64,000 bases of DNA, from the NCBI GenBank assembly GCA_963745645.1, contig CAVUYD010000004.1, positions 428,010 through 492,009 of the forward strand, in the 5' to 3' direction. This DNA comes from an uncultured Actinomycetes bacterium. Lineage in GTDB: Bacteria > Actinomycetota > Acidimicrobiia > IMCC26256 > PALSA-610. The notes under the pieces are model-generated. The model saw only the letters and a program-made list of their open reading frames with translations. It was not told where the DNA came from and did no database searches. Every line of letters starts with the position of its first letter. The stretch's first letter is position 1. Shown piece after piece: positions 1-5,269 of the stretch. The translations under genes were made by a program, and so were the position numbers.

Positions 1-1
1 G

Positions 2-913
2 ATGCGCTGGCTGCACAACCAGAGCCTGCACCAGCCCGGCGTCGGCAACGGCTTCGCGGTGCAGGGCAAGAAGGGCGACCGCGAGGTCGCAGTGGGCGCC
101 GGGTACGCGATCGACGACCTCGGACGCGAGATCGTGCTGACGAGTAGCCGCACGATCCCGGTGCCGCCCGTCGCCGACGACGGCTTCGGCAACCCGCAGC
201 ACTACCTCCTGACTGTGCAGTACCCGGACGACGCAGACCTGGAAGAGGTTGAGCGGCGGCAAGGCATTTGCGACACCGACGGCGCAGTCCGGCTGCGCGA
301 GGAACCGATCTTCTGTTGGGTCAAGCTGAACGCGAACGGGACGCCCAGCGAAGACCAGGACCGCATCGTGAGCGGCCGCCAGCTGGTGCTCGCCGAGATT
401 GCGGTCCGCGACTGCAAGCTCGTCGACGACATCAGCATCGTGCAACGCCGGAATGCGAGGCCGCCACAGCAGCCGTACATCGCGTGCGGTGTCGCGGATC
501 CGACGGAGTGGGTCGCGTGGGACAAGTGGCCCGACTTGCTCGACTCGAGTGCAGGCCAACGCTTCGCGGCCGCGACGTCCGACAACTTCGGGATCGTCGG
601 CGGCGTGCAGGCCGCGATCGACACGACCAGCGCCGGCTTTCACAGTCCGCCCGAGTACTTCGCGCGGATCGACGGCCCACGGCTGGTCACCGTCACGTCC
701 GACGGCAGCGACGAGCAGTTCGTGATCGACGGACTCTTGTCCGTCGAGGCCGCAACTGCGGCGGGCTTCATCGCGCAAGTGGTGATCGTCGCGTTCGACG
801 CCGAGACATTCGAGATCGGCGAAGGGTCCAACGGGCCCGCGGCCGCCGACGACACGACGGTCGCCGAGGTCTTGCGCGACTGGACCGTCGGCTGGATGGG
901 CGTCGAGGGATGA
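2..913 (+). CDS. Conserved hypothetical protein, paralog A of a 3-member family in a phage-tail-like locus (5' end cut by window edge)
   Basis: The ORF is open to the window start. It shares ordered motifs with the products of 3178..4151 and 4148..5269: 'RWLHNQSLHQPGVGNGFAV' vs 'RRMLNRLVSGYGVLCGLDV' vs 'RRHNVYLHGWGVVCGALV', and 'VGAGYAIDDLGREIVL' vs 'ISPGAAIDGWGREIIV' vs 'VEPGYILGPYGDEIII'. Its stop overlaps the next start (ATGA at 910-913). Confidence 0.6.
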   Translation: MRWLHNQSLHQPGVGNGFAVQGKKGDREVAVGAGYAIDDLGREIVLTSSRTIPVPPVADDGFGNPQHYLLTVQYPDDADLEEVERRQGICDTDGAVRLREEPIFCWVKLNANGTPSEDQDRIVSGRQLVLAEIAVRDCKLVDDISIVQRRNARPPQQPYIACGVADPTEWVAWDKWPDLLDSSAGQRFAAATSDNFGIVGGVQAAIDTTSAGFHSPPEYFARIDGPRLVTVTSDGSDEQFVIDGLLSVEAATAAGFIAQVVIVAFDAETFEIGEGSNGPAAADDTTVAEVLRDWTVGWMGVEG

Positions 914-3177: not shown

Positions 3178-4151
3178 ATGTACGGCACGCAGCAGACATC
3201 GAGCCGGACGGACTGGCAGGGCGGGTTGACGACACCGCGTCGCAATCGGCTACTTCCACGGCAAGATGATGGATGTCCACCACTTCGAGATGGAGACCGG
3301 ATACGGCATCGCGATGCGGCGCATGCTCAACCGGCTCGTGTCGGGCTATGGCGTCTTGTGCGGGCTCGACGTCGTGTCCCGGCGACGATCCCTGTTCGGT
3401 GCGCATCTCGCCTGGCGCGGCGATCGACGGGTGGGGGCGCGAGATCATCGTGCCGACCACGACGCAGTCGCTGCCGATTCCCGCCGCGCTCGTCGACCGC
3501 GTGTGCGGTCGGGAGGAGCCGTGCGACGACGACGAGTCGCAGAAGCACGACGGTGGATCGGCGGGAAGCGATCGCCCCGCAAGCCGCGTCGGCGAACGCC
3601 GACGAACGCGACGACGAAGGCCGCCACGAGCACGAAGGACATGGTCACGACGATGATGACGAGGCGTGCGTCACCGTGCTGCTCTGCTACCACGAGTGCG
3701 AGAGTGATCCCGTCGCGGTGCTCGCGGGCGACTGCTCCACGTCGACGCCATGCGCGCCGAGCTCGATCCGTGAGCAGTACCGCATCGACTTCGAAGCCGG
3801 CTGCACCGATCCGGTCGAGATCAGCTGCCGCTTCCCCGACGTCTTGCGCCGCGGCGAGATCGACTACGGCGCGCTCGCGCGCTGGGTCACCCAGGAGTGC
3901 CTGCGCCACCGATGAACCCCTGCATCCCACTCGCGAACCTTCGGCTCGACTGTCGCGACGATGGCTGCGCGATCCACAACATCGACATCGAGATCCGGCC
4001 GGTCGTGTACGGCAACGACATCATCCTCGACATCCTCAGCCGGATCATCGAGGAGAGTCGCCCGGCCGGCGGCGCAAAGCGGACGCCGACGCTGACGGCG
4101 ACGAAGACGGCACCGACAGCGAGACGAAAGAGGAGCCATGGCAAACGATGA
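3178..4151 (+). pseudogene. Conserved hypothetical protein, paralog B of the tail-locus family; frame-disrupted as sequenced
   Basis: ATG 3178 is preceded by 'caggaggagcc'. Pieces in three frames assemble to '...RRNR(Y)FHGKMMDVHHFEMETGYGIAMRRMLNRLVSGYGVLCGLDVV', then 'PGDDPCSVRISPGAAIDGWGREIIVPTTTQSLPIP' (ORF 3273..3656). Next comes 'ACVTVLLCYHECESDPVAVLAGDCSTSTPCAPSSIREQYRIDFEAG...' (ORF 3163..3915), then 'NPCIPLANLRLDCRDDGCAIHNIDIEIRPVVYGNDIILDILSRIIEES' (ORF 3897..4151). The order of motifs is collinear with paralog C. Confidence 0.6.
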
Positions 4152-5269
4152 CAACTGCGCCGACCGCCAAGCACGGCGACGCGACGTCGACGCCCTGTTG
4201 CACAGACGGTCACTCGTGCTTCCCGTTCGGCATCCAAGAGCGTCCGCGCTACTACCCGCGCCAGCTGATGACGCCCGACGAGCTCACGCTCGAAGCGGAG
4301 TACTTCCGTGATCGCATGCGCCGGCACAACGTGTACCTGCACGGGTGGGGTGTCGTGTGCGGCGCGCTCGTCTGCACGGTACCGGCGAAGTCGACGGCCG
4401 CGACCAACACGCCGACGCGGATCTCCGCGTCCGACGCGACGTATCGGCAGCAGCGTGGTGACAGCGGCGCGACACCTACGGACGTGCCGGCGACCGAGCC
4501 GTGGATCGTGCGCGTCGAACCCGGCTACATCCTCGGTCCGTACGGCGACGAGATCATCATCGACTGCACGCGCGAGGTGCCGCTCCGGGGAACCGGAGTG
4601 AGCAGCTGCGGTGACGTCACCGACGCACTCGATCCTTGGTGCAGCGAGGTGTACGTCAAGCAGAAGGAAGGCCCGCGGTACATCGCGGTGCGGTACAAGG
4701 AGTGCCAGGTCCGGCCAGTTCGCGCGCAGCCCGCGGCATGCGGTTGCGACGAGCAACCGTGCGAGTACTCGCGGCTGCGCGACGGCTACGAGATCGGCAT
4801 CCTCGACTGCTGTCCCGACTCGCACACGGGTCCGCTCCATCGGATGGACGATCGCCACAACCCGACGTGTCCGTGCTGTCCCGACAGCCCCTGGGTCGTG
4901 CTCGCAAAGGTCGAGGTCGACCGCGAAGGCATCGTGCAGGTGATCGACAACTGCGAGTGTCGCCGCATCGTGCACTCCGACCGTGAGATCTGGACGCATT
5001 GCACCGGTAGCGACTGCGACGAAGGTGTCGACCAGGTGCGTCCCTACGACGAGGTGCCGGCGTATCGCGAGACCACGGGGATCTATACCGGTCCCGAGGC
5101 CGCGCGCTCGGCCGAGGAAGCCGAGCTGCGACCCGCGCCCGCGAAGCGTGTCGCGAAACGTGCCCGTCGCAGCGAGACGCCTACACCGGAGCCCGCGAAG
5201 CGAGTCCAGAAGCGCGCCCGCAAGGCGACGAAACGCACCCCACGCAAGCGTAGCGGCGGCAACGGCTGA
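4148..5269 (+). CDS. Cysteine-rich conserved hypothetical protein, paralog C, with Lys/Arg-rich C-terminal repeat tail
   Basis: This is the in-frame part of ORF 3266..5269 from 'MTTAPTAKHG'. It contains the motif 'RPRYYPRQLMTPDELTLEAEYFRDRMRRHNVYLHGWGVVCGALV' and about 20 Cys in clusters (CC..C, C.C...C, DCC, C.CC, C.C, C....C). The tail reads 'PAPAKRVAKRARRSETPTPEPAKRVQKRARKATKRTPRKR'. An alternative ATG at 4138 has the same 'gaggagccATG' context as paralog B but is in another frame, so the true 5' end is uncertain. Confidence 0.65.
   Translation: MTTAPTAKHGDATSTPCCTDGHSCFPFGIQERPRYYPRQLMTPDELTLEAEYFRDRMRRHNVYLHGWGVVCGALVCTVPAKSTAATNTPTRISASDATYRQQRGDSGATPTDVPATEPWIVRVEPGYILGPYGDEIIIDCTREVPLRGTGVSSCGDVTDALDPWCSEVYVKQKEGPRYIAVRYKECQVRPVRAQPAACGCDEQPCEYSRLRDGYEIGILDCCPDSHTGPLHRMDDRHNPTCPCCPDSPWVVLAKVEVDREGIVQVIDNCECRRIVHSDREIWTHCTGSDCDEGVDQVRPYDEVPAYRETTGIYTGPEAARSAEEAELRPAPAKRVAKRARRSETPTPEPAKRVQKRARKATKRTPRKRSGGNG

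Follow-up and report, generated by a model that had tools for sequence, protein, structure and literature searches.

In the baseplates of the Streptomyces coelicolor contractile injection system (CIS) particle CIS-Sc and of pyocin R2, the wedge is built from two J-like subunits (two Cis11) and one gpI-like subunit (Cis12) (PMC12237407). In the thylakoid-anchored CIS of Anabaena (tCIS), Cis13 and Cis19 are trimers bound to the baseplate, to which Cis13 attaches by its N-terminal domain (PMC8894136). Shoulder-type baseplate anchor domains of extracellular CIS (eCIS) were catalogued by Nachmias et al. in 2026; they form the N-termini of eCIS fibers in systems with a Tail_P2_I-type baseplate, which have up to five fiber genes per locus (PMC12923769). 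CIS particles are being engineered for protein delivery, and it is the baseplate periphery that decides binding and the time of firing. Here, we describe positions 1-5269 of a 64,000-nucleotide stretch of DNA (the window) from an uncultured Actinomycetes bacterium (assembly GCA_963745645.1, contig CAVUYD010000004.1, positions 428,010 to 492,009 of the forward strand). Very probably, this segment is the distal, baseplate-periphery end of a CIS- or eCIS-type operon of an uncultured high-GC actinobacterium, with the frame breaks in two of its genes, G2 and G3, being errors. With this window, one more locus joins a lineage that has no solved structure and is frequent in soil Acidobacteriota, Actinomycetota, Chloroflexota, and some Proteobacteria. 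No solved CIS shows such a periphery, and structural biology has a clear target in this uncharacterized baseplate variant, with its conserved set of two J paralogs, a gpI protein bearing an NHL propeller, and four shoulder-type proteins.

A conserved baseplate module

Coding on the + strand is unbroken from base 1 to ~6670 of the window, as seen in a phase plot of third-position GC content (GC3) and in maps of the open reading frames (ORFs), and GC content is 0.65-0.72. The closest relative, an uncultured Actinomycetes metagenome-assembled genome (contig CAVUFH010000003.1, locus L001), is collinear with window positions 1-5250 at 75-81% nucleotide identity. The segment opens with P1 (2..913, +), which occupies open frame 2 and runs off the window edge; its C-terminal 303 amino acids (aa) are present, ~35 N-terminal residues lie beyond the edge by comparison with the L001 ortholog, and it is 73% identical to residues 36-371 of that protein (tblastn). 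G2 (910..3152, +), G3 (3178..4151, +), and P4 (4148..5269, +) follow, and after them a gene with a DUF4157 domain. The tight coupling of these genes, noted in a preliminary description made from the sequence letters, is confirmed by ATGA overlaps at positions 910 and 4148. The shared start context that it also reported is present, as GAGGAGCCATG, at 3170 and 4130, but at 4130 the start that matches the orthologs is the ATG at 4148 and not the adjacent ATG. An element resembling a ribosome-binding site, GAGGAGCC, stands ahead of the G3 ATG at 3178.

The same gene string recurs widely. A scan at one genome per species gave 382 relatives of P4, of which 80 loci were fetched, and gene order was surveyed by phmmer with the L001 proteins in the 62 loci having at least 9 kb of upstream DNA. 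All 62 contain two Baseplate_J genes (J1 and J2), P0, P1, the NHL and gpI parts of G2, G3, and P4, in identical order in all but one (61/62), and a DUF4157 gene comes after P4 in 40/62. P0 is a fourth paralog of P1, G3, and P4, seen in the relatives just upstream of the point at which the window starts. Carriers span Actinomycetota (including Streptomyces, Nonomuraea, and Wenjunlia), Acidobacteriota, Chloroflexota, Planctomycetota, and Proteobacteria (Variovorax, Roseateles, Mitsuaria, and Methylobacterium); among them are the cultured strains Variovorax ureilyticus P51, Roseateles chitinivorans P36, Tunturiibacter lichenicola MP8S11, Streptomyces sp. NBC_00005, and Wenjunlia tyrosinilytica.

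Upstream of the module, the extended contig of the closest relative (L095) carries Phage_GPD, Phage_base_V, PAAR, and GPW_gp25 genes and then the two Baseplate_J genes, and its cluster closes with the DUF4157 gene. Three metagenomic loci (L081, L083, and L085) hold complete clusters from AAA ATPase through DUF4157, in the order AAA ATPase, two unknowns, sheath, gp19 tube, CIS_tube-LysM, VgrG-like, PAAR, gp25, and then the module. The earlier proposal that the window begins inside a contractile-tail or eCIS locus is upheld by the DUF4157 gene after P4 and by the core genes upstream of the same gene string in L095. For the window, whose first base would fall in the last third of the cluster, we infer the core genes upstream of that base from synteny.

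G2 joins an NHL propeller to a gpI-type wedge domain

G2 encodes an NHL propeller (~1120-1939), a beta-sandwich (~1941-2290), and a gpI/Tri2/Cis12-like domain (~2298-3009) in a frame that is broken as sequenced. After stitching of the frames, the product matches Pfam NHL (E 1.8e-12, 47 bits, cutoff 20), TIGR02242 (E 2.7e-19, 69.5 bits against a cutoff of 51.85; 74.3 bits for the intact ortholog), and, marginally, Tail_P2_I (E 1.9e-4, 21.7 bits against a cutoff of 20.6), so that the composition first read from the unstitched letters, an N-terminal NHL region with a C-terminal gpI/TIGR02242 region, is borne out. It also matches CIS12_fam (NF053768) at E 3.9e-29 and 101.9 bits, or 114.1 bits for the L001 ortholog, although it lies outside that equivalog family, with 102-114 bits against the required 860 and only model positions ~423-689 of 715 aligned. 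Among named families, our profile scans rank CIS12_fam first for G2 and CIS13_fam first for G3, P4, and P1.

The model of the intact 735-aa ortholog (predicted local distance difference test, pLDDT, 74.9) contains a six-bladed NHL propeller, a beta-sandwich, and a helical gpI core, in that order. Its NHL part matches the NHL domains of Thin, TRIM71, and PknD both in sequence (phmmer) and in fold, with target-normalized template-modeling scores (TMt) of 0.7-0.8 (Foldseek). The Foldseek search with the whole model gave no information on the gpI part, since propeller matches swamped the list; this part was examined instead with a profile (A3) of the C-terminal 290 residues against PDB sequences. 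The profile matched 9gtp_E, the 190-aa Cis12 of the S. coelicolor CIS baseplate (E 1.6e-16), 6u5b_0, the Tri2 protein PA0619 of pyocin R2 (E 6e-5), and 8kea_c, the phage wedge protein gp32 (E 0.013). At the level of sequence homology, G2 is shown to be a counterpart of gpI, Tri2, and Cis12.

Compared with CIS-Sc (9GTP) and pyocin R2 (6U5B), the locus has in common the homologous gpI-like domain and, in the relatives, the Baseplate_J genes that precede G2. It departs from them in the size of the wedge protein (190 aa for Cis12 and 177 aa for Tri2 versus ~735 aa for G2, with the added propeller and beta-sandwich) and in the J subunits, which are two copies of one gene product in those particles and two distinct paralogs in the present lineage. 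The Anabaena tCIS (7B5H) also has an enlarged Cis12, encoded in a cluster with the trimeric periphery proteins Cis13 and Cis19 (all3314-all3316) as here, but its extension is C-terminal and contacts the membrane, whereas that of G2 is an N-terminal NHL propeller. We found no relevant literature linking an NHL propeller to a CIS wedge protein or to eCIS. The NHL-gpI fusion is present in 62/62 related loci and, judged by these, is typical of the lineage and not exceptional; the suggestion that it is an unusual add-on fails.

Instead of a CIS, the segment could be a tail module belonging to an R-type tailocin or to a myovirus prophage, P2-like or other. Tail_P2_I/TIGR02242 and Baseplate_J are phage-type domains, the gpI domain matches Tri2 of pyocin R2 as well as Cis12, and G2 homologs with NHL and Tail_P2_I domains are publicly annotated as "phage tail protein." We give this explanation very little credence, given that a gene of the eCIS_core (DUF4157) family follows directly, as it does in 40/62 relatives, that AAA ATPase, CIS_tube-LysM, and PAAR genes stand in one string with sheath and tube genes in the relatives, and that the best named matches are the CIS12 and CIS13 NCBIfam models. 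Moreover, no head, terminase, or lysis genes occur in L095, the one flank with genes called and annotated.

Four shoulder-type paralogs around the wedge gene

The sequence relationships among the proteins that flank G2 are distant, with pairwise BLASTP E-values of 1e-4, 2e-4, and 0.013 among the three in the window. Comparison by hhalign of family alignments built from 65-83 orthologs each gave E 7e-44 over 255 columns for P0-P1 and E 7e-24 over 215 columns for G3-P4. Cross pairs aligned at E 1e-10 to 3e-13 over the N-terminal 85-110 columns only, with P1-G3 (E 3e-13) and P1-P4 (E 2e-10) both confined to the N-terminal ~85 columns. These profiles place the four paralogs in two pairs, P0/P1 and G3/P4, which have in common only an N-terminal domain of ~90 residues. 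The preliminary description had recognized three paralogs with collinear motifs, including a Cys-containing block. The N-terminal motifs are common to P1, G3, and P4; the Cys block, because of the profile coverage, is clear in G3 and P4 only, and the family has four members and not three. P4 is an intact ORF of 373 aa. Its conserved core (residues ~28-290) is rich in Cys, nine Cys being invariant across the P4 family (alignment A1), and its C-terminal tail is basic and disordered.

Few named families touch these proteins. CIS13_fam (NF053767) matches the N-terminus of G3 over ~80 residues (E 3.5e-16) and that of P1 weakly (E 1.8e-3), yet the paralogs fall outside this equivalog family (59-66 bits for G3, 31-32 for P4, and 17-29 for P1 against 370), and only model positions ~2-93 of 392 align. 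No Pfam family, including DUF6519 (eBAP5), matches P0, P1, G3, or P4 at E <= 1, and no PHROG family matches any of the four. A match of P4 to FAINT (E 0.0077, under the cutoff) was dismissed as chance, as was a PDB match of the single G3 sequence. P4, which is identical to P0001, has more than 1128 homologs, all without a name. The view that the family is uncharacterized holds in that Pfam and PHROG are silent, but CIS13_fam touches the N-terminal domain and shoulder-type anchors were catalogued in 2026 (PMC12923769). Scans of Pfam, PHROG, and NCBIfam match the paralogs to no non-tail family.

The AlphaFold2 model of P4 (mean pLDDT 68.6, confident core at residues ~45-290) has as its top PDB matches chains AA, AB, and AC of the Anabaena tCIS (7b5h; E 5e-5, probability 1.0; Foldseek), which we read as the Cis19 crown trimer from their size and trimeric arrangement, the tool giving the entry name only. 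TssK (6n38 and 5mwn) follows at E 4e-3 to 2e-2 and the receptor-binding protein (RBP) of lactococcal phage 1358 at E ~1; the top 16 PDB matches are all of the shoulder-type class, and the matches in BFVD are phage proteins, among them a putative tail fiber. In the model, P4 has a shoulder-like N-terminal fold that resembles Cis19 and TssK. Gene order in the relatives and this baseplate-periphery trimer fold, common to Cis19, TssK, and the lactococcal phage RBP, agree with the earlier remark that the paralogs occupy the position usual for fibers. The P4 model shows no Afp13/Pvc13 fiber character, for which an adenovirus-like beta-spiral shaft and an eBAP1/2 helical anchor are typical; it is a helix plus beta-sandwich core without a shaft, no fiber shaft appears among its PDB fold matches, and the paralogs match no PHROG or Pfam fiber family. 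The locus is a CIS with a Tail_P2_I-type baseplate and not of the Afp13/Pvc13 fiber type.

Several known peripheries resemble this one in part. CIS-Sc has no fiber-like proteins, whereas the present lineage has four shoulder-type paralogs around the gpI gene. The tCIS has two unrelated periphery proteins in place of four paralogs, its Cis13 has a transmembrane helix that the paralogs here do not, and the P4 family does not resemble the 7B5H chains in sequence. TssK, from the T6SS (type VI secretion system), has the shoulder-type N-terminal fold of the P4 model, and its trimer docks on a TssF2-TssG wedge, the counterpart of J2-gpI; in contrast to the T6SS, the present locus has no membrane complex and no TssK family match, and its surroundings resemble those of an eCIS (DUF4157 here and, in relatives, the other core genes). 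The eBAP3-5 fibers (PMC12923769) are alike in that their genes lie downstream of Tail_P2_I, several per locus, in systems with a Tail_P2_I-type baseplate, and that they begin with a shoulder-like anchor, but this anchor has ~200 residues versus ~90 here, two of the present paralogs are encoded ahead of gpI, and no match to DUF6519 (eBAP5) was found.

At the C-terminal end of P4, residues ~325-373 (window 5120-5266) make up a disordered tail that is strongly basic and rich in Pro, Ala, Lys, and Arg (…PAKRVAKRARR…KRVQKRARKATKRTPRKR). This tail is kept in L001 and is not family-wide; some members bear an Ig-like PF09099 domain instead.

Frame breaks in G2 and G3

Neither G2 nor G3 is a continuous ORF as sequenced, the former needing ~8 frame changes and the latter ~4. 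The path through G2 runs in frame 1 (910-1692), frame 2 (1697-1939), frame 3 (1941-2513), frame 1 (2515-2553), frame 2 (2552-2659), frame 3 (~2660-2755), frame 1 (2752-3021), and frame 3 (3021-3149). G3, of the G3/P4 subfamily of shoulder-type proteins, starts in frame 1 and changes to frame 2 at ~3253, frame 3 at ~3379, frame 1 at ~3568, and frame 3 at ~3913. Each switch was confirmed by tblastn with the intact L001 orthologs. Global alignment to L001 places ten single-base insertions at 1695, 1940, 2512, 2549, 2656, 2759, 3023, 3031, 3252, and 3377, and two further frame-breaking indels near 3534 and 3907; the ten single-base frame-breaking differences at 1695-3377 are all insertions, with zero deletions. 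A homopolymer origin was ruled out, only 4/11 sites being near a run of four bases. As a separate observation, insertions at 1695-3377 are ~5 times denser than in the flanking genes.

Such breaks could mean that the locus is a decaying CIS remnant, G2 and G3 being true pseudogenes and the locus non-functional in this organism. The crowding of ~12 frame-breaking indels into 1695-3913 between intact P1 and P4, and their position outside homopolymer runs, would fit decay. However, the essential cell-shape genes mreB, mreC, mreD, and PBP2/mrdA (45556-48999, +) show the same kind of break, each divided among frames (mreB, at 45.5-46.7 kb, in frames 1, 3, and 1) next to an intact ndk (45111-45539), as does a gene at 9463-11108 (+), and many short same-strand frame switches occur along the window (Viterbi segmentation of GC3 phase). 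The breaks are almost all +1 insertions. Similarity to the orthologs is undiminished across them, amino-acid identity to L001 holding at 55-86% (72-86% for G3 against intact L001 G3, spanning four frame switches), and the corrected frames have zero stops (tblastn). The closest relative (L001/L095) carries every one of these genes unbroken. Because mreB, mreC, mreD, and PBP2 are broken too and the L001/L095 genes are intact, we read the breaks in G2 and G3 as sequencing or assembly errors rather than gene decay; because housekeeping genes in the window share them, we reject the pseudogene explanation, which we consider quite improbable. Possible causes of the insertion cluster are a mixture of strains, a basecalling artifact, or coverage that is locally low. 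The assembly is error-prone in this window, and apparent pseudogenes in it should not be accepted at face value.

Proposed architecture

The reading of positions 1-5269 as the baseplate-periphery end of a CIS has several points against it. The window itself contains no sheath, tube, spike, or J gene; such genes had been predicted upstream and are found there in relatives (the J genes among others in L095, the complete set in L081, L083, and L085), so the upstream part of the operon rests on relatives. The ~12 breaks lie in 2.2 kb of G2-G3, compared with none in flanking P1 and P4, a density that a uniform error rate cannot explain. Confidence in the P4 model is no more than moderate (pLDDT 68.6), and its fold matches have low TM-scores (~0.23), so the likeness is at the level of domains; the P4 family profile matches nothing among PDB sequences at E <= 10. 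Finally, the paralog cores are conserved across phyla at 45-60% identity, with variation limited to the insertions and tails of G3, P4, and P1, and structural or anchoring connectors therefore fit better than fast-evolving receptor-binding fibers.

This last point leads to an alternative that we regard as possible, though rather unlikely, in which the CIS is cell-internal or membrane-anchored, like CIS-Sc, tCIS, or the T6SS, and the shoulder proteins and NHL propeller would be TssK-like connectors to a host structure rather than fibers for binding a target cell. In fold, P4 comes closest to Cis19, from the tCIS anchored in the thylakoid, and to TssK, which connects the T6SS baseplate to the membrane; the cores are not hypervariable, and the actinobacterial CIS-Sc works in the cytoplasm (PMC12237407). 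On the other hand, the module showed neither a transmembrane helix nor a gene for a membrane complex, bona fide eCIS fibers also have shoulder-type anchors as their N-termini (PMC12923769), and the variable insertions and tails of G3, P4, and P1 could hold specificity. The sequence evidence fits released and retained particles alike.

Within a CIS- or eCIS-type operon, G2, as the counterpart of P2 gpI, pyocin Tri2, and Cis12, would be the wedge protein present in a single copy and would form the wedge "triplex" together with J1 and J2. P0, P1, G3, and P4 would most likely assemble as trimers and dock on it via their shared N-terminal domain. Their divergent C-terminal parts would face outward as short fibers or anchors, sensing contact and relaying the firing signal to the baseplate. 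We propose that the NHL propeller on G2 serves as a docking platform or contact sensor and that the apparent DUF4157-OmpA_C protein is cargo. The whole would be a baseplate design without a counterpart among solved systems, consisting of a triplex of two distinct J paralogs and gpI, an NHL hub or sensor, and a ring of four TssK/Cis19-like trimers; we offer it tentatively, as an arrangement that may well prove different. If true, it would link the TssK-type periphery of the T6SS to eCIS-type particles and provide a new modular handle for retargeting.

Candidate cargo gene and neighboring genes

The gene directly after P4 (5282..6672, +) probably comprises an eCIS_core region in frame 2 (5282 to ~5790) and an OmpA_C-like region in frame 1 (~5790-6672). 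PF13699 (eCIS_core) matches at 5282-5938 with E 1.5e-29 and 102 bits, the cutoff being 22. The downstream OmpA domain (E 1.1e-12) begins upstream of the start of the listed frame 1 ORF. DUF4157 and a complete OmpA_C-like domain of the peptidoglycan-binding type probably form one protein, the frame changing between them near 5790, and we consider this product a candidate cargo. In place of the OmpA_C of the window, its counterpart in L001, a DUF4157 protein of 718 aa, has weak matches of metallopeptidase type. Adjoining the candidate cargo gene, an ORF at 6725-7400 (+, frame 2) has a long glycine-zipper stretch (GAVVGGVIGAVLGGIGGFLLGGPAGAVIGGLGG), and its frame seems to shift before 7730.

In L095, large nonribosomal peptide synthetase (NRPS) genes come after the DUF4157 gene on the other strand (16496-22208, -; Condensation, AMP-binding, PP-binding, and methyltransferase domains). 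The neighbors in the window differ from these, which places the locus in a variable region. An OsmC-family peroxiredoxin gene at 8928-9356 (-; TIGR03562, 1.5e-43) marks ordinary chromosomal context ~3.5 kb beyond the end of the CIS locus. The frame-split gene at 9463-11108 (+) lies in frame 1 (9463-~10150) and frame 3 (10440-11108) and encodes a repeat-rich, secreted-looking protein, whose PD40/TolB-like repeats and Ig-like end were recognized by eye only.

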